From an uncultured delta proteobacterium (GTDB taxonomy: Bacteria; Desulfobacterota; Binatia; Binatales; Binataceae), in contig CAWJET010000002.1 in the NCBI GenBank assembly GCA_963842085.1, forward strand, positions 192,001 through 256,000: a DNA stretch of 64,000 bases, read 5' to 3'. Positions 1-7,039 of the stretch are shown piece after piece. Made by a program: the position numbers and the translations under genes. Position 1 is the stretch's first letter. The number at the start of each line of letters is the position of its first letter. Below the pieces are notes generated by a model, which saw only the letters and a program-made list of their open reading frames with translations, did no database searches and was not told the DNA's origin.

Positions 1-100
1 AGTACTCAGAAAATGTGCTGTTCTCGAAATTACCCGACCCAGAAGCGGGCATCGCGAGAATCCCTAGGAGCGCTACCAGCAGTCCTTTCGTGAAATTCAT
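1..100 (-). CDS. Secreted/periplasmic protein, N-terminal part only (runs off window edge); candidate immunity protein for the DPBB tip
   Basis: ATG at 100-98, 13 nt after the TGA of the 114-638 ORF. Translates MNFTKGLLVALLGILAMPASGSGNFENSTFLST..., a Sec-type signal peptide (K, hydrophobic core, A-S-G). Not in the ORF track because it is truncated. Confidence 0.65.
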   Translation of the reverse strand, partial: MNFTKGLLVALLGILAMPASGSGNFENSTFSEY

Positions 101-113
101 ATCGCTGATTCTC

Positions 114-638
114 TCATTGCAGAGGAGGCTGAGGCCCTGCGGGAAGCGTAACCGTTACGGGGATGTGCCCCTCACTCAGACTGCCGCCTGTAAGCGCCTT
201 GAACGCACCGGGCGACAGGTCTATGATTCGATTCTTTCCCTTCGCGTACGGCCCGTGATCGATAACTTTCACCGTAATGGTTTTCGGAACGTTAGAACCA
301 GGCTTCAGATAGGTAACATTAGCTTCTGTTCCGCACGGGAAGGTTCCGTTCGGACCGACTATCTTCGGACTCATCGCAGCGGTGAAGCCCTCAGGGTCTG
401 AGTACACGTAATTGGAGCAACCCGTGTGCCCTGTAGGGTAGTAAAAGCTAGCCTCGCCGCTGATGGTCATCGGGTCCGCAGACCCTTGCGCGGCAGAAGC
501 CTCGTCCGGGATCAGACCATCCTGAATTCCCAAGATGACCGGATACAGCGGGTGGCGGCCGTGGCGCAACTGGCGCGGAATCGGAGGGGCACTGCTGCCG
601 CCAAACAACCAGTCGAAGATGTCCTGGAAACAATTCAC
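114..638 (-). CDS. Orphan polymorphic-toxin C-terminal cassette 2: conserved junction + RlpA-like double-psi beta-barrel (lytic transglycosylase/expansin-like) domain
   Basis: RlpA/DPBB motifs GEASFY..TAA..PCGT..VT..VKVIDHGPY..RIIDLSPGAF..L..G..V.V. Preceded by the junction peptide shared with 1015-1629. Possible GTG at 638, just after the upstream stop; may be a start-less fragment. Confidence 0.7.
   Translation of the reverse strand: MNCFQDIFDWLFGGSSAPPIPRQLRHGRHPLYPVILGIQDGLIPDEASAAQGSADPMTISGEASFYYPTGHTGCSNYVYSDPEGFTAAMSPKIVGPNGTFPCGTEANVTYLKPGSNVPKTITVKVIDHGPYAKGKNRIIDLSPGAFKALTGGSLSEGHIPVTVTLPAGPQPPLQ
507..587 (-). repeat. Cassette junction repeat, copy 2 (encodes PPIPRQLRHGRHPLYPVILGIQDGLIP)
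   Basis: Direct repeat of 1381-1461. 553-589 is identical to 1427-1463 over 37 bp. The two peptides match at 24/27 aa. Confidence 0.95.
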
Positions 639-640
639 CG

Positions 641-1000
641 TTAGCCGCCGTCTCTGAGGAACGCCTGGATCCCAAACACAGTTGCGGCAGCCAGAGAGAT
701 AACCGCAGCGACCAGCAGCCCGAGGCCGATCATCGCATCCGCCAGGAAGGGGATTATCGTGATGGGGTGCCACGTGACCAACACGGACGCTGCTGTCAGC
801 AGGATCGCAAGGACCATAAGCCCGAAGGGCCTTCGGCCTGTGCGCCATCCCGCACCCAATACCACGAGCGCGCCCACGGCTGGGAGGCCGTAATCCTGGA
901 GGATCCAGCCAGCGGTCTGGGGAAAAAGTGCCCACAATACCGCAAGTACGGTCGCAATAGGAAAAATGATCCAAAATACCCGCTGTTTATAGGATCGCAT
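641..1000 (-). CDS. Small multi-pass membrane protein (~4 TM, 119 aa); candidate immunity protein for cassette 1
   Basis: GGAGGAG SD upstream of ATG at 1000. MRSYKQRVFWIIFPIATVLAVLWALFP... is hydrophobic throughout. Lies immediately after the stop of the 1015-1629 tip. Confidence 0.7.
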   Translation of the reverse strand: MRSYKQRVFWIIFPIATVLAVLWALFPQTAGWILQDYGLPAVGALVVLGAGWRTGRRPFGLMVLAILLTAASVLVTWHPITIIPFLADAMIGLGLLVAAVISLAAATVFGIQAFLRDGG

Positions 1001-1014
1001 CGGATGCTCCTCCA

Positions 1015-1629
1015 TCAATTCCCGTGCCCGCAATTGAGGAACTGCGCAACGCAGTTCGCATAGCGAGCTGCGGTGATACCGCCGCAAACGGTGAGAGCTC
1101 CGCTCACTGCAAAACCGGTTGCGCCTTCACAGCCGGCCAAGGTCTCGGGGAATGCCGGTCCGGTAGCCGCAGATATAGGGAAGCATCCGGCAGCGAGCCC
1201 CGCGCCGAATTCCAGAACACGCTTTGCGCACTCAGGGTTCGCGAAGACGGGCTTCACGCAGGCTTCGTATTGCTCAAAACACATAGCCTGGTTATCGCTA
1301 TTGGGCTTGGGCTGCAGCGGGGGGTCAGGACAAAGGTCGGGGTCTCCGCAGACTGGTGGCTTGCCCGCGGACTCCATGGTCGGAATCAGGCCGTCGGAAA
1401 AACCCAAAATCAGCGGATACAGTGGATGGCGGCCGTGGCGCAACTGGCGCGGAATCGGAGGGGTGTCGCTGCCGCCCCCGCCGAAGAGGTCGTCGAACAA
1501 CTCAAACAGCCCTTCCGCTATCAACCCTATAACAACGGCCGGCGTCGCAACACCTAGAGAAACGCCTTCAGCACCGACTGGAAATGCGTTGAAAGCGCTG
1601 ATGGCCCCGGCCGTTAGGATTTTACTACA
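1015..1629 (-). CDS. Orphan polymorphic-toxin C-terminal cassette 1: hydrophobic pre-junction + junction + Cys-rich hydrophobic tip (probably a start-less fragment)
   Basis: The frame stays open from the SDR stop (CSKILTAGAISAFNAFPVGAEGVSLGVATPAVVIGLIAEGLFELFDDLFGG...), with no canonical start before TTG at 1524. It carries the junction motif and then a 10-Cys Gly/Ala-rich tip. Confidence 0.65.
   Translation of the reverse strand, partial: CSKILTAGAISAFNAFPVGAEGVSLGVATPAVVIGLIAEGLFELFDDLFGGGGSDTPPIPRQLRHGRHPLYPLILGFSDGLIPTMESAGKPPVCGDPDLCPDPPLQPKPNSDNQAMCFEQYEACVKPVFANPECAKRVLEFGAGLAAGCFPISAATGPAFPETLAGCEGATGFAVSGALTVCGGITAARYANCVAQFLNCGHGN
1381..1461 (-). repeat. Cassette junction repeat, copy 1 (encodes PPIPRQLRHGRHPLYPLILGFSDGLIP)
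   Basis: Direct repeat of 507-587 at an 874-bp offset. Confidence 0.95.
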
Positions 1630-1630
1630 C

Positions 1631-2509
1631 CTACGATTTCGTCTTGTGCTCCGGTTTGCCGCCGCCCATGAGCGTGCCCGCGCCCTGCATCAGCCGGGTG
1701 CCGACGCTCAGCAGCGCGTCGGTGACGCCGGGGAACAGCGACGCGAGTTTTTCCGCGACCGCGGCGCCGGGAGGAACGTCCACCTCGGTCAGCCCGAACG
1801 CGGCCGCGGCCAGCACCGCCCACGTCACCCATCGCGGCGGCATCGCCGCCAACGCCGACACGGCATGGAGCGGATCGTGCTTGAGCGCGTTGCGCGCCAT
1901 CGGCGTGTCGATCACCCCGGGCATCACGAGCGATACCTTGATGCCGGTATTGAACAACTCGACGCGCAGTGCTTCGGTCAGTCCCACCAGCGCAAACTTG
2001 GTCGAGCTGTAGCCGCCGAGCGGGCTGACTCCCCGGCGTCCCGCCAGCGACGAGATGTTCACGATGTTGCCCGACCTGGCTTTGCGCATCACGGGCAGCA
2101 CGGCTTGCATCGCGTGGAGTGCGCCGAAGACATTTACCGCCATCATCTTTTCGAGGTCTTCGGGGCGCATCTGCTCGACCGTATCGGTGATCAGCAATCC
2201 CGCCGAGTTGATCAGGATGTCGAGTTTGCCGAAGGCTTCCTTGACCTGCTCTACCGCCCAGAACACGCGCGCGCGATCGGTCACGTCGCAATCGAGCGCG
2301 AGCGCCTTGCCGCCGGCCTTGTTGATTTTGTCCGCGAGTTCGTCAAGCTGCGCGCGCCGGCGCGCGAGCAGCGCAACCTGCGCGCCCTGTTGGCCAAAGG
2401 CGAGCGCGACGTCGTGGCCGATGCCACTCGAGGCGCCGGTTATGACCACCGATTTGTCGAAGAAGTAACCGCGCACCGGTCCTTTGGATTGCCGCTTGGG
2501 TTCGCTCAT
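1631..2509 (-). CDS. Short-chain dehydrogenase/reductase (SDR)
   Basis: TGASSGIG, NSAG, NISS and YSSTK motifs; GAGG SD before ATG 2509. Confidence 0.93.
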   Translation of the reverse strand: MSEPKRQSKGPVRGYFFDKSVVITGASSGIGHDVALAFGQQGAQVALLARRRAQLDELADKINKAGGKALALDCDVTDRARVFWAVEQVKEAFGKLDILINSAGLLITDTVEQMRPEDLEKMMAVNVFGALHAMQAVLPVMRKARSGNIVNISSLAGRRGVSPLGGYSSTKFALVGLTEALRVELFNTGIKVSLVMPGVIDTPMARNALKHDPLHAVSALAAMPPRWVTWAVLAAAAFGLTEVDVPPGAAVAEKLASLFPGVTDALLSVGTRLMQGAGTLMGGGKPEHKTKS

Positions 2510-2687
2510 TGCCGTCACCTCGATTGGGCGCCGTGGCACGGAACTGATGGCGGGGGCGTCGTTTCAGGCATTGTGCGCCGGTCCCCCGCGCATGCGCAAA
2601 CCGGCGCTCAGGCGGGTTGCCGAGGGGACCGGGCGTGGTTAACAATCAATCGAGGGAGCCGTGTGAGATGCGGGAGCGCGAATTATA

Positions 2688-4111: not shown

Positions 4112-5641
4112 CTAAGCCTTCTTCTCCCACCGCAGAATCGGGCGGCGTGCGGCGAGCGCTTCATCCACGCGCGAGACCGGCAAGGTCTGCGGCGCGTTCT
4201 TGACGCGCTGGGGATCGTTCAGCGCTTCGTCGTAAATCCGTTCCATCGCATCGACGAAGCTGTCCAGGATTTGCTTGCTCTCGGTCTCGGTCGGCTCGAT
4301 CATCAGCGCGCCCGGGACCACCAGCGGGAAATAGATCGTCGGGGGATGGATGCCGAAGTCGAGCAGGCGCTTGGCGATCTCGAGCGTGCTCACGTCGGCG
4401 CGCTTTTCGAGGTCGTGCGAGAGCACGCATTCATGCATCGACCATTCCGTCGTCGCGCTGGGGAAGTGCGCCTCAAGGCGTTTGCGAACGTAGTTCGCGC
4501 CGAGGATCGCGAGGCGGCTGGCAGTCGCGAGCCCGTCGCCGCCGAGGGCCAGGATGTAGGCGTAGGCGCGCACGATCATTCCGAAATTGTTGTGATAGGA
4601 ACGCATCCGGCCGATGGAATCGGGCCGCTCGCGATCGAATTCGTAGCCGGCGCTGGTGCGCTTCAGCCGCGGCATCGGCAGGAACGGCTCCAGATGCTTC
4701 TTCACCGCGACCGGGCCGGCGCCCGGCCCGCCGCCGCCATGAGGTGTCGAGAAAGTCTTGTGCAGATTGAGCTGCACGATATCTGCGCCCATGTGCCCGG
4801 GCTTGGCGACGCCGAGCAGGGCGTTCATGTTGGCGCCGTCCAGGTAGAGTATCGCGCCGCGGTCGTGCAGGGCGGCCGCGATCTCCTGGATTTCCGGCTC
4901 GAAGATCCCAAGCGTGTTGGGGTTGGTGATCATCATGGCGGCGACGTCGTCGCTGAGCAGGTGCTTCACCTCCGCCGCCTCGAGGTATTCGCGCCGGTTC
5001 GATTTCGCGACCACCACCTCGAAGCCGGCGAGCGTGCAGCTCGCGGGATTGGTGCCGTGGGCAGTGTCGGGGATGATCACCTTGTGGCGGGTCTCGCCGC
5101 GCTTGCGATGATACCCGCGGACCATCAGGAGCCCCGTCAGCTCGCCCTGCGCGCCGGCGGCAGGATGCAACGATACGGCGTCCATGCCAGTGATCTCGGC
5201 GAGCGCGGCTTCCATTCGCGCGATCAGTTCGAGCGCGCCCTGCGCCAGATGCGCCGGCGTCGCGGGATGGAGTCCCGCAAGGCCGGGCAGAGCCGCCAAC
5301 TCGTCGTTCACGACCGGGTTGTACTTCATCGTGCACGAGCCGAGCGGGTAGAACTCGAGCGCCTGGGCGAAGTTGAGCTGGGAGAGGCGCAAAAAATGCC
5401 GCAGCACCTGCGGCTCGCTGAGCTCGGGGAAGCCGGGGAGATCCTCGCGGCAAAGCTCGGCGCCGATCAGCTCGGCGCCGCGGCGCTCGCCGGCGGTGCG
5501 TGGCGCGAGATCAGTTCCGCGGCGGCCTTCGGATGAAAGTTCGAAAATGAGCGGCACGCCCGCCACCGGCTCGATTCGATCGACGGTCGAAGGAGTTTCA
5601 GGGGCCGGGACTGGTCCGATTCTGCCCGCACTCGCCATCAC
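4112..5641 (-). CDS. gcvPB: Glycine dehydrogenase (decarboxylating) subunit 2
   Basis: YPLGSCTMKYNP, AHGTNPAS, NLHKTFSTPHGGGGPG and IEPTETESK motifs. Confidence 0.97.
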   Translation of the reverse strand: MMASAGRIGPVPAPETPSTVDRIEPVAGVPLIFELSSEGRRGTDLAPRTAGERRGAELIGAELCREDLPGFPELSEPQVLRHFLRLSQLNFAQALEFYPLGSCTMKYNPVVNDELAALPGLAGLHPATPAHLAQGALELIARMEAALAEITGMDAVSLHPAAGAQGELTGLLMVRGYHRKRGETRHKVIIPDTAHGTNPASCTLAGFEVVVAKSNRREYLEAAEVKHLLSDDVAAMMITNPNTLGIFEPEIQEIAAALHDRGAILYLDGANMNALLGVAKPGHMGADIVQLNLHKTFSTPHGGGGPGAGPVAVKKHLEPFLPMPRLKRTSAGYEFDRERPDSIGRMRSYHNNFGMIVRAYAYILALGGDGLATASRLAILGANYVRKRLEAHFPSATTEWSMHECVLSHDLEKRADVSTLEIAKRLLDFGIHPPTIYFPLVVPGALMIEPTETESKQILDSFVDAMERIYDEALNDPQRVKNAPQTLPVSRVDEALAARRPILRWEKKA

Positions 5642-6987
5642 CGCACCTCCGCAATTGCCGCCGCAAGCCGGCTGAACTCTTCGCCGCGATTCATCTCGGT
5701 GACTGAAAGCAGGAGCGCGTCGGAAAGTTCGGGATAGTCGCCGCCGAGGGCGACTCCTGCCAGGATTTGCTTGCGCTCAGCCGCTTCCAGAGCGGCCGCG
5801 GGGTTCGCAAGCTTCAACGCGAACTCGTTGAAGAACGGTCCCGAAAAACGCCGGCCGATGCCCGCAGCCTCGAGCACCGCGGCCGCCTGATGCGCCAGCT
5901 CGACGTTTCGCTCCGCCAGCTCGCGGAGTCCAGCCCGGCCCATCAACGAGAGATAGACCGTGGCGGCGAGCGCGCACAGGGAGTGATTGGTGCAGATGTT
6001 GGAGGTCGCCCGTTCGCGGCGGATATGCTGCTCGCGGGTATTGAGCGTCAGGCAAAACGCGCGGCGACCGTCGCGATCGCGAGTCTGTCCGACTAAGCGG
6101 CCCGGCATCTGGCGGATATGGGTCATCCGCGCCGCCATGAAGCCAACGCCGGGTCCGCCGTATTGAAGCGACAGCCCGAAACTTTGACCCTCGCCGACGG
6201 CAATGTCGACGCCGAGCTCGCCCGGCGCGCGCAGCAGACCAAGCGCGATACCCTCGGCAGTGGCGGAGATGGCGAGTGCGCCCGCGCGATGCGTCAGCTC
6301 GGAAATCGCGCCGAGCGGTTCGATTACGCCGAGTGCGTTGGGATAGCCGGTGACCGTGCAGAGCAGGCGATCGTTGGCGATTCGATCGAGCGCGGCGGCG
6401 TCGGTCGCGCCGGTCGCGTCGTCAAACGGAACTTCGACGATCTCGATTCCCTTGAGCGCGCTCAGGTAGGTGCGAATGGTCGCGCGATAGTCCGGCCAGA
6501 GCGCTCGCGAAAGTGCGACGACCGGCCGCTTGGGCATCAGCCGCCGTGCCATCAGAACGGCCTCGGCGGCGGCGGACGCACCGTCGTACATGCTGGCGTT
6601 GGCGACTTCCAGCGCGGTGAGTTGCGTGATCAGCGTCTGAAACTCGAAAATCGCTTGCGTGGTTCCCTGGCTCGCCTCGGCCTGGTACGGCGTATAGCTG
6701 GTGGCGAACTCGGCGCGCGCGATGACGGCGCGCACCGCGGCCGGCACGTAATGGCGATAGTAACCGGCGCCGAGGAAACTGACGAAACCCGAGGCGCCCG
6801 TATTGCGAGCCGCGAGCGCTGAAATCTCCCGGACGACATCCGCTTCGCTGCAGCCGGGGTCGAGGTTGATCGCCGCGCTCGCGCGCAGGTTCGCCGGCAC
6901 GTGCGCGATCAGGTCGTCGAGATGCTTTGCTCCGATCGTTTCGAGCATCGCGGCGACATCGCTCTCTGTATGTGGCATGAATCTCAT
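5638..6987 (-). CDS. gcvPA: Glycine dehydrogenase (decarboxylating) subunit 1
   Basis: YTPYQAEASQG, NASMYDG and REQHIRRERATSNICTN motifs; start set at MRFMPHT. Confidence 0.97.
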   Translation of the reverse strand: MRFMPHTESDVAAMLETIGAKHLDDLIAHVPANLRASAAINLDPGCSEADVVREISALAARNTGASGFVSFLGAGYYRHYVPAAVRAVIARAEFATSYTPYQAEASQGTTQAIFEFQTLITQLTALEVANASMYDGASAAAEAVLMARRLMPKRPVVALSRALWPDYRATIRTYLSALKGIEIVEVPFDDATGATDAAALDRIANDRLLCTVTGYPNALGVIEPLGAISELTHRAGALAISATAEGIALGLLRAPGELGVDIAVGEGQSFGLSLQYGGPGVGFMAARMTHIRQMPGRLVGQTRDRDGRRAFCLTLNTREQHIRRERATSNICTNHSLCALAATVYLSLMGRAGLRELAERNVELAHQAAAVLEAAGIGRRFSGPFFNEFALKLANPAAALEAAERKQILAGVALGGDYPELSDALLLSVTEMNRGEEFSRLAAAIAEVR

Positions 6988-7039
6988 GGAATCAACTTGT
7001 CCTCCGCCCGGCTCCGCCGCCACTTAACCCGTAATTCAA

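Follow-up and report, generated by a model that had tools for sequence, protein, structure and literature searches.

The window, a 64,000-nt stretch of DNA from an uncultured delta proteobacterium of the Binataceae, carries at its left end (positions 1-1630, minus strand) two cassettes that share a direct repeat (Table 1). In the direction of transcription, a junction and a Cys/Gly-rich tip (tip A) are followed by a gene with several hydrophobic segments (immA), a second junction and tip (tip B) and a signal-peptide gene (immB) that continues beyond the window. ORF calls and translation bear out this order and the remarks on start codons made in an earlier, sequence-only reading of the stretch: each partner gene opens with an ATG of its own, which neither tip has. 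The longest identical run between the two repeat copies is 37 nt, at 553-589 and 1427-1463, just where that reading had placed it. On the minus strand both copies translate as F..LFGG(G/S)S..PPIPRQLRHGRHPLYP(V/L)ILGxxDGLIP, and 24 of the 27 residues from PPIP to LIP are identical, again as read before. Codons are identical at 16-17 of the 24-25 identical junction residues, which is suggestive of conservation of the junction at the DNA level.

Table 1. Features of the array and its surroundings. Positions refer to the window unless another contig or locus is given.
Feature	Position	Strand	Description
Putative immunity gene B (immB), 5′ part	1..100	-	whole product 154 aa, N-terminal signal peptide, own ATG
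immB, whole gene	G000:C2:191636-192100	-	extends off window
Cassette B	114..638	-	junction 489-635, then tip B; stop codon at 116-114
Putative immunity gene A (immA)	641..1000	-	119 aa, at least three hydrophobic TM-like segments (Kyte-Doolittle)
Cassette A	1015..1614	-	5′-truncated carrier fragment: linker-coding from 1614, junction 1363-1515, tip A (frame from TTG, 1524-1015)
Direct repeat	507-602 / 1381-1476		96 nt, 82% identical (repeat search)
Right 49-nt direct repeat	1615..1663		intergenic spacer and last ~33 nt of SDR gene
Left 49-nt direct repeat	L001 15343-15391 (G000:C2:189343-189391)		off window
Flanking SDR gene	1631..2539	-	outside island; conserved right flank of insertion site

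The earlier reading had proposed to extend the array leftwards and to count its copies. When all six frames of the 4.93-Mb genome were scanned for the motif, three copies of the junction were detected, all at this locus, together with one further, unrelated PPIPRQ hexapeptide match on contig C1. The third copy is located left of the window (C2:190791), and the array continues there with a small conserved ORF (ORFx), an Rhs-core fragment joined to the third junction and tip (tip C), and a CPBP/Rce1-like gene. The three cassettes retain about 140, 250 and 590 nt of constant sequence. The whole array lies in a 4.27-kb insertion between 49-nt direct repeats with a GC content of 0.578, compared to 0.636 and 0.652 in the flanks, in agreement with the AT-richness noted before.

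The only in-frame start codon of tip A is a TTG at 1524. Homology to the linker of longer carrier proteins continues upstream of this codon, and in a blastn comparison with an orphan cassette of a congener (G027) it ran to L001 19614, which is window position 1614 (83.7% identity over 251 nt). Tip A is rich in Cys and in Gly/Ala and ends at a TGA (1017-1015). It is 41% identical over 161 aa to an orphan tip of another congener (G016) and weakly matches the tip of the full-length carrier P0001 (30% over 116 aa, E 1.8e-6). A toxin-family search including Pfam gave no recognisable family for tip A or tip C. The AlphaFold2 model of tip A, from a 7-row alignment, was unusable (mean pLDDT 45.3), and the ESM Atlas (best feature score 0.82) offered structural neighbours only below the bar, which were Gly-zipper-like and serve as leads. 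The ATG of immA (1000-998) follows a GGAGGAG sequence (1013-1007) at 6 nt. No homologue of immA was found in any of the 46 other congeners searched, and no Pfam family scored over the cut-off.

Tip B opens with a GTG (638-636) directly after the preceding stop codon, and the carrier homology of its cassette starts at about 630 according to the blastn boundaries. This tip is an RlpA-like double-psi beta-barrel (DPBB), as it matches Pfam DPBB_1 (E 6.9e-8; 33.1 bits against a cut-off of 28.8 bits), has 4avr_A (PA4485) as its best PDB sequence match (E 2e-7) and shares with RlpA-like proteins the conserved block ..D(H/R)GP(Y/F)..GR.ID(L/V)S... Unlike RlpA-like proteins, however, tip B is a C-terminal polymorphic-toxin module with a predicted secreted partner, and its enzymatic activity is putative. 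A full-length carrier ORF of 1366 aa in a congener (G070:C3) ends in a sequence with 54% identity to tip B over 168 aa, and the next gene after this carrier is 45% identical to immB over 150 aa. Tip B, immB and ORFx are the counterparts of the carrier C-terminus and its two downstream genes. The junction of the G070 carrier has diverged (...LFGIGGGEQAKPYQLDHAKNQNW...). More distant immB homologues in G032, G011 and G015 have no adjoining DPBB tips, and a homologous-protein search with immB returned only its own cluster. Complex prediction for tip B (residues 45-174) with immB (23-154), from alignments of 4 and 5 rows, scored 0.00 in two runs, which is not evidence either way.

The tips might be expressed alone, from TTG 1524 and GTG 638, as toxin-antitoxin (TA)-like modules or as small toxins exported by another route. 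The frames of tips A and B are indeed unbroken and can be aligned end to end with homologous tips, and gene callers predict a protein of 161 aa (P0053) for tip A. A precedent for such self-contained tips would be an orphan Rhs module of Salmonella that is reported to act as a type II TA-like module (PMC7043789). However, no Shine-Dalgarno sequence precedes either start codon, carrier-derived sequence extends from TTG 1524 out to the island edge, and neither tip has a signal peptide, though their partners look periplasmic or membrane-located. Promoter-like sites were also at the level of shuffled sequences (4 vs 1.8 +/- 1.4 expected). We consider independent expression of the tips unlikely. The corresponding scan for terminator-like sites (7 vs 3.8 +/- 2.1 in shuffles) was uninformative.

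The third copy of the junction is joined to an Rhs core end that reads ...VPLIDASGSTIALVN..TTYTYDPSG..WPFLYGG..YYYTGSGQFYSPQ, followed by a frame break, linker, junction and the short tip C. P0001 matches this core in two frames, and a TAG lies inside one of the matches. The AlphaFold2 model of the tip C ORF, based on a 150-row alignment, reached a mean pLDDT of 60.3. Only the helix at residues 78-98, from the Gly-zipper to FFEDLF, had block means above 80, and the junction was mostly coil (block means 62-74).

The sequence-only reading had predicted a long secreted YD/Rhs protein with the junction just before a variable C-terminus. Such carriers do exist in relatives (among them P0001, P0003, P0005 and P0007, and P0006 with an MRQL variant). 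In total, 18 longer proteins of 784-1350 aa matched a congener orphan (E 1e-117 to 6e-11). Precomputed annotations place RHS_repeat (PF05593) on all of them and DUF6531 on 13, and a motif regex found the junction in seven, 84-140 aa before the C-terminus. With hmmscan, RHS_repeat was found on P0001, P0011 and P0014 (E 7e-20 to 2e-14). Apart from RHS_repeat and DUF6531, Pfam found on these three proteins only the tip families of P0011, DUF4329 and, weakly, Prok-JAB. YD_repeat_2x matched all five carriers scanned, and together with the RHS_repeat and TEN_YD-shell matches this predicts a YD-repeat shell. A full-length carrier of ~1300 aa consists of a signal peptide, which can be read directly in the sequences, DUF6531, YD repeats, a degenerate core end (YYSGGGQFYSPQLVRSLSE), a Gly/Ser-rich linker of ~90 aa with a hydrophobic Gly-zipper helix at its end, the junction FFEDLFGG..PRQLxHGRHPLYPvILG..GLIP, and a variable C-terminus of ~85-140 aa, the predicted toxin. 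Among 401 genomes of the class, all 42 junction matches lie in open frames of at most 871 aa, so none of the sampled genomes yielded an intact carrier that has the canonical junction; those known come from metagenome proteins only.

The position of the junction in the carriers bears on a quite different explanation, namely that the shared segment is the N-terminal double-glycine leader of small bacteriocins exported by a C39-peptidase ABC exporter and is unrelated to Rhs. The ..LFGG string superficially resembles such a leader, the tip C ORF has a weak Bacteriocin_IIc match below the cut-off (E 0.4; 11.1 vs 27.1 bits), and the CPBP/Rce1-like gene lies 3′ of tip C. CPBP/Rce1-like genes accompany class II bacteriocins. 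In full-length proteins, however, the motif does not lie at the N-terminus but after the YD repeats, around residues 1165-1195 of ~1300, and carrier linker or core sequence precedes it in all three copies of this genome and in most congener copies. Both observations contradict a leader, and we regard this explanation as extremely improbable.

The junction, FGG..PRQLxHxRHPLYPvILG with the Gly-zipper helix before it, is the constant/variable boundary of this carrier subfamily and takes the place where classical Rhs proteins have PxxxxDPxGL. As suspected earlier, it is not a recognised pre-toxin motif: it differs from DPxGL and VENN, falls outside every Pfam and NCBIfam model, and was found almost exclusively in a single bacterial family. 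A profile search of 1.84 billion proteins returned 184 representatives at E<=1e-3, 139 of them at E<=1e-10. In a 150-row alignment the junction columns are nearly invariant at an overall mean column identity of 9%, and past the junction the sequences diverge abruptly into many unrelated domains. Of the 150 matches listed, 149 were new proteins, and among these Pfam found PLA2-like (6), DPBB_1 (3), 3D (2), eCIS_core (2), DUF4329 (2), Ntox44 (1) and Ntox37 (1) domains, as well as RHS_repeat (3). Arrays of 2-5 copies also occur in congeners, and orphan cassettes far outnumber carriers in the sampled genomes. A related-locus search with an 8-row alignment returned four loci, all in MAGs titled 'delta proteobacterium', and a literature search pairing Binatia with YD repeat found nothing. 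The carriers are not the undescribed polymorphic toxin system suggested at first; they form a lineage-specific subfamily of the known Rhs/YD-repeat kind.

Next to this, we searched the own genome (100% complete) for a full-length carrier. None was found: RHS_repeat had no matches, P0001 matched inside the array only, and Rhs_assc_core gave nothing at the island locus (E<=10) and nothing over the cut-off, with three matches elsewhere at E 0.4-0.9. VipB/TssC (PF05943) and PAAR (PF05488) had no matches in this genome or in four genomes with full-length carriers (five of five, 92-100% complete), and delivery of the carriers as T6SS Rhs effectors was rejected on these grounds.

T6SS PAAR-Rhs effectors and the TcC cocoons of Tc toxins cleave themselves with an aspartyl protease at the DPxGL region. 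The carriers share with them the predicted YD-repeat shell, and by eye their core end (WPFxYQG..YYSGGGQFYSPQLVRSLSE) resembles what we take to be the PAAR-Rhs/TcC consensus. In contrast to these proteins, none of the five carriers scanned matched Rhs_assc_core (TIGR03696) at E<=1 and none of the 18 proteins has DPxG[LIVMF] at the core/tip boundary; the only such strings in the last 400 aa lie inside YD repeats, 250-400 aa from the C-terminus. Silent tip/immunity cassettes with a common pre-toxin junction are also a feature of CdiA-CT/CdiI and MafB systems, but the junction described here has no VENN motif. Since Pfam found only RHS_repeat, DUF6531 and one tip domain (DUF4329) on the three carriers, these lack TPS, haemagglutinin and DUF1020 (MafB-N) domains. 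A CdiA-CT/CdiI cassette was rejected because the junction is not VENN and P0001, P0011 and P0014 have no TPS domain.

Bacillus subtilis WapA is a Sec-dependent YD-repeat toxin. The carriers resemble WapA and the 'T2SS/Sec-dependent' class of polymorphic toxins (Zhang et al. 2012, PMC3482391) in having a signal peptide, YD/RHS repeats, a variable C-terminus and a downstream immunity gene, and in their independence of a T6SS. They differ from WapA-type toxins in their domain set (DUF6531 and TEN_YD-shell) and in the kind of linker and junction; the host, a MAG labelled 'delta proteobacterium', is presumably diderm, unlike WapA-type hosts. The closest parallels to the cassettes themselves are the orphan rhs-CT/rhsI modules of Dickeya, Yersinia and Salmonella (Poole et al. 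2011, PMC3150448; Koskiniemi et al. 2014, PMC3967940). Such modules likewise occur in arrays, as 5′-truncated tips that keep upstream rhs coding sequence, sometimes with an interrupted core, each followed by a small immunity gene, and the same tips are found on full-length YD proteins of other bacteria. In contrast to them, the boundary here is FGG..PRQLxHxRHPLYP after a Gly-zipper linker rather than PxxxxDPxGL, the carriers have a Sec signal and neither the own genome nor the four carrier-bearing ones a T6SS sheath or PAAR, the own genome has no full-length rhs gene at all, and the array is a discrete island between flanking repeats.

The boundaries of the island were determined by repeat search and by alignment with empty sites of congeners. 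The two 49-nt repeats are 96% identical with a start-to-start spacing of 4272 nt. Of 29 congener loci, 12 have no insertion at this site; there the SDR stop codon lies 21-55 nt from that of the convergent left-flank gene, which we labelled 'GNAT-like', and nothing stands between the two. Seven soil-metagenome DNA runs from two studies contain at least 85% of the sampled words, and in runs from both studies the stretch is nearly unchanged (0-1 other letters in long pieces); no RNA runs holding island sequence were listed. Contigs were examined for 4 of the 10 listed runs. One 347-nt contig (X2) joins L001 15354 to 19658 with 37 other letters between them. This sequence is of the empty-site type of G001 (L063), so we read it as coming from an island-less relative and rejected it as an excision product of the island strain.

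This conservation weighs on the possibility that the island is a decaying remnant without present function, in which the carrier was lost and tips and partners drift as pseudogene material. Decay would fit the lack of a carrier in the own genome, the frame break and short tip of the tip C fragment, the lack of immA relatives among the 46 other congeners and the frequency of orphan-only arrays in the sampled genomes. On the other hand, tip A, tip B, immA, immB, ORFx and the CPBP gene are intact as ORFs, ORFx is 87% identical to its G070 copy over 345 nt with an open frame in both genomes, and the stretch is almost unchanged in the metagenome runs of both studies. We thus hold plain decay to be improbable.

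On balance, the locus is very probably a 4.27-kb accessory island with three orphan C-terminal cassettes of a Sec-exported Rhs/YD-repeat toxin family and their presumed immunity genes, which supports the earlier view of orphan toxin-tip/immunity cassettes with a short shared 5′ homology. Points against it are the absence of a carrier from the own genome and of canonical-junction carriers from the sampled ones, the diverged junction of the G070 carrier, immA without homologues in the other congeners, more distant immB homologues without DPBB neighbours, and the lack of a recognisable toxin family for tips A and C. The cassettes are 5′-truncated copies without start codon and export signal, the third being frame-broken as well, and the conserved junction DNA may provide the homology for swapping tips onto a carrier. 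Recombination onto a full-length toxin, as the sequence-only reading had envisaged, does not fit the own genome: with no full-length carrier in the same cell, the cassettes cannot at present recombine onto one there. For the same reason it is probably the partner genes, with starts of their own, that are at work today. They could protect against toxins of neighbouring relatives that are tip-A-like (possibly membrane-active) or tip-B-like (peptidoglycan-cleaving DPBB), while the tips would be kept as spare parts or carried along as hitch-hikers. The likeliest role of the array at present is that of an immunity reservoir that also stores spare tips.

More tentatively, the Gly-zipper helix and the junction might form a module of their own, for processing or membrane translocation, that replaces the DPxGL aspartyl-protease plug in Sec-exported, T6SS-independent YD-shell toxins confined to a single family of soil bacteria. 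The junction DNA might then also be the site of cassette swapping, and islands with att-like repeats might be mobile immunity reservoirs in carrier-less genomes. We see this as a possibility of rather less than even chance.

Rhs/YD toxins are mostly treated as T6SS cargo that cleaves itself at a DPxGL site. In the uncultured soil clade described here, YD carriers have a Sec signal and a different, strongly conserved constant/variable boundary, with at least 139 distinct junction-plus-tip clusters, most of whose tips belong to no known family. Should the junction prove to be a new module for release or translocation, it would add to the known ways in which YD cocoons deliver their cargo, and its 49-position profile would be a handle for mining toxin and immunity domains in soil metagenomes. 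The carrier-less island, in turn, bears on the question whether orphan arrays are kept for immunity or for attack.

A repeat search in the window returned a 96-nt direct repeat with 82% identity (507-602 and 1381-1476), the printed copies of which share a fully identical 37-nt core (553-589 and 1427-1463). Translation of the minus strand gave two toxin-like tips, A and B, which share a start (..LFGG..PPIPRQLRHGRHPLYP(L/V)ILG..DGLIP; the constant/variable boundary, or junction) and diverge afterwards, and their putative immunity partners, immA and immB. A six-frame scan of the own genome (4.93 Mb, 2 contigs, completeness 100%) counted three junctions, all at this locus. The array of tips and partners with a common junction, seen in the sequence-only reading, is thus confirmed by the repeat search, the translations and the genome scan, and extension leftwards with a count of copies, as that reading had proposed, added a third cassette 1.2 kb left of the window. 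Four further features lie behind immB outside the window. The segment is also more AT-rich than its surroundings, as had been noted: the GC content of the island is 0.578 vs 0.636 and 0.652 in the flanks.

Features of the island and its flanks (locus L001 is C2:174001-194000; subtract 18000 from an L001 position to obtain the window position)
Feature	Position	Strand	Remarks
Tip A	window 1524-1015	-	from translation
immA	window 1000-641	-	119 aa; at least 3 TM-like segments; ATG 6 nt after GGAGGAG
Tip B	window 638-114	-	GTG directly behind preceding stop
immB	begins at window 100, leaves window; L001 18100-17636	-	signal-peptide gene; from translation
ORFx	L001 17629-17255	-	124 aa; no family
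Rhs/YD core end	L001, after ORFx		..VPLIDASGSTIALVN..TTYTYDPSG..WPFLYGG..YYYTGSGQFYSPQ, then frame break
Linker, Gly-zipper segment, third junction and short tip C	L001 17127-16462		other frame than core end
CPBP/Rce1-like membrane protein	L001 16110-15412		PF02517, E 9e-12
GNAT-like gene	L001 14581-15345		left flank; our own label
SDR gene	window 1631-2539		right flank; convergent with GNAT-like gene
49-nt direct repeats	L001 15343-15391 and 19615-19663 (= window 1615-1663)		47/49 identical

At the DNA level, homology to carriers, full-length YD/Rhs-repeat proteins of ~1300 aa, reaches window 1614 in cassette A, well upstream of the TTG at 1524, ~630 in cassette B and L001 17255 in cassette C. 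Since this homology continues upstream of every junction, the tips are truncated 3′ ends of carrier genes, and the alternative that they are small genes with a shared leader was rejected. The full-length protein P0001 aligns in two separate pieces, one to the core fragment, with a TAG inside it, and one to the junction part. By eye, and compared to the carrier on contig C1 of the congener G070, about 20 codons of the usual LVRSLSE..G/S stretch seem absent at the frame break.

The island proteins were also compared with all fetched loci by tblastn. Over 168 aa, tip B shares 54% of its residues with the C-terminal end of a 1366-aa carrier ORF on contig C3 of G070; for immB and the gene that directly follows this carrier, the identity is 45% over 150 aa, and ORFx DNA is 87% identical over 345 nt to the second gene downstream, which occupies the same position. 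With ORFx, which may be a second immunity protein or an accessory one, the tip B cassette thus consists of three genes. Further on, the G070:C3 locus holds a decayed '..EAEIGPLIDAS..' fragment, as in the own array. For tip A, an orphan tip in G016 shows 41% identity over 161 aa, and the tip of P0001 a weak similarity (30% over 116 aa, E 1.8e-6). Directly upstream of the G070:C3 carrier, a separate ORF with YD-like repeats and, by eye, an IPT/TIG-type segment behind them (L049 11318-11842, minus strand) may be a partner in export or surface display.

In the own genome, a profile search for RHS_repeat gave zero matches, and Rhs_assc_core was found neither at this locus nor above cut-off elsewhere. 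A search of the protein collection with a congener orphan that keeps ~200 aa of the core (L025:6314-7588) returned 18 longer relatives (784-1350 aa, E 1e-117 to 6e-11), and their precomputed domains include RHS_repeat in 18/18 and DUF6531 in 13/18. Among six carriers inspected over the full sequence, five have a typical Sec signal peptide at the N-terminus (P0011 is without one), and all six have the order DUF6531, YD repeats and core end (..WPFQYQGMEKE..YYSGGGQFYSPQLVRSLSE), followed by a ~90-aa Gly/Ser/Ala-rich linker that ends in a hydrophobic Gly-zipper. FFEDIFGG..PRQLLHGRHPLYPVILG..LIP comes next in four of the six, including an MRQL variant in P0006, and then the variable tail; P0011 and P0014 have diverged junction forms, again with the variable tail last. 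A long secreted protein with the junction before a variable end had been predicted, and it does exist as a YD/Rhs protein: by regex, the junction is present in 7/18 longer relatives, 84-140 aa from the C-terminus. Rhs_assc_core (TIGR03696) matched 0/5 carriers at E<=1, and in the final 400 residues any DPxG[LIVMF] string lies within the YD repeats, 250-400 aa away from the C-terminus. Profiles for TssC and PAAR had no match in five genomes, the own one and four that bear full-length carriers. This architecture fits the Sec-dependent class of polymorphic toxins in Table 1 of PMC3482391, and by predicted architecture the carrier family belongs to this class.

Tip B carries an RlpA-like DPBB domain (DPBB_1, 33.1 bits vs a 28.8-bit cut-off; best PDB match 4avr_A, E 2e-7) with the conserved block D(H/S/R)GP(Y/F)..GR.ID(L/V)S. 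RlpA is a lytic transglycosylase. A periplasmic target of tip B would fit its predicted secreted partner. Tip A, with 11 Cys and hydrophobic stretches rich in Gly and Ala, matched no family in profile searches; as its partner immA is a predicted multi-pass membrane protein, tip A might tentatively be taken for a membrane-active toxin. Tip C is short, with a Pro/Thr-rich spacer and ~40 aa before the CPBP-type protein, homologues of which recur within the arrays of G005, G022 and G070. Homologues of immA were found in 0/46 other congeners and immB-like genes in 4/46, the sole copy adjoining a DPBB tip being that of G070. Distant immB-family genes (25-33% identity) at L052 (G032), L053 (G011), and L054 and L055 (both G015) stand alone beside housekeeping genes with no toxin tip near; these may be orphan immunity genes or members of a wider periplasmic protein family.

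In an alignment of 19 junction copies (A1), residues G, P, R, Q, H and Y are invariant, and the consensus is ..F.DLFGGGS.P.IPRQL.HGRHPLYPVILG...GLIPTE.SAG. The profile of this alignment matched 184 of 1.84 billion representative proteins at E<=1e-3 and 139 at E<=1e-10. The 150 matches listed comprise 149 new proteins, 69-681 aa long, and a single one of 1283 aa (P0012), an orphan-to-carrier ratio that overstates the orphan excess because clustering at 50% identity collapses carriers, with ~1100 aa in common, far more than orphans. Pfam assigned PLA2-like domains to 6 of the 149 listed proteins, Gly-zipper families to 5-6, DPBB_1 and RHS_repeat to 3 each, 3D, eCIS_core and DUF4329 to 2 each, and Ntox44, Ntox37 and Prok-JAB to 1 each; the majority had no Pfam family. 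In many tips (P0019-P0167), another semi-conserved stretch, G.P.(F/I)CGDP..C...PLQK, follows the junction, and real divergence sets in only behind it. This possible second processing or linker element is found in tip A (window 1300-1362) and tip C (L001 16660-16716) and is absent from tip B and the other DPBB tips. The junction itself is covered by no Pfam or NCBIfam model, and a limited literature search, blind to a motif written differently, found no description, in line with the initial impression that it is none of the familiar pre-toxin motifs.

A single junction query matched 11/36 congeners, which have arrays of 2-5 copies, and 0/24 genomes from other genera of their class. With the junction profile, 18 of 401 genomes drawn from the class matched: 16/94 of the same family (three genera strongly), the own genome, and, with a weak match (E 8.7e-4), one of the 306 from other families. 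The open frames that hold the 42 matches in these 401 genomes never exceed 871 aa. Close full-length relatives of P0001 (41-51% identity over >1000 aa) were found within the genus in G033, G007, G070:C3 and G006, and all four have diverged junction variants. The 871-aa ORF on G070:C1 has the canonical junction, is itself 5′-truncated and has four orphan copies behind it. The unpublished genome G023 is counted in the congener and other-genus junction query, the P0001 genus search, the 401-genome profile and the congener tallies for immA, immB and the GNAT-like gene, and contributes L073 to the site comparison below.

All three cassettes lie in a 4.27-kb island flanked by the 49-nt direct repeats, which comprise the spacer between the GNAT-like and SDR genes and the final ~33 nt of the latter. 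Carrier homology of cassette A runs right up to the right copy, ending at the adjacent base. Of 46 congeners, 44 have the GNAT-like gene. In 12 of 29 congener loci (L058-L086) the site is empty, the stop codons of the two flanking genes being separated by 21-55 nt; seven hold other cargo of 0.45-0.9 kb (a ~290-aa ORF or a small membrane protein); and in ten the SDR gene is not within 1.5 kb, a long unrelated ORF abutting the GNAT-like gene in six of these. The spacer is a variable spot in the genus (empty 12, small cargo 7, other genes or rearrangements 10), and none of the 29 other loci fetched has an Rhs array there. ORF reading found no recombinase gene within the island, and the repeats look like att sites (attL/attR-like) of an element mobilised in trans or since decayed. 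Farther right, two adjacent ORFs of 509 and 461 aa (window 4112-7023, minus strand) resemble, from translations only, split glycine dehydrogenase subunits (gcvPB/gcvPA) and read like ordinary housekeeping context.

The locus is well supported as an orphan Rhs/YD tip-plus-immunity array. Its kind, Rhs/YD polymorphic toxins with orphan cassettes, is already known. New are the boundary module, the combination of predicted Sec export with the absence of T6SS and of DPxGL, the confinement to a single family of uncultured soil bacteria, and the carrier-less island bounded by repeats. The genome lacks a carrier, so no display of the cassettes is possible in this cell. The partner genes, with their own starts, would plausibly protect against neighbours deploying matching toxins; a tip-B-like toxin on a full-length carrier is present in the congener G070. 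Less probably, the cassettes act as TA-like modules, as has been reported for an orphan (PMC7043789). Recombination of an orphan onto the main rhs gene was shown experimentally in Salmonella (PMC3967940), and the tips of this island may be spare parts for recombination following transfer, or mere hitch-hikers.
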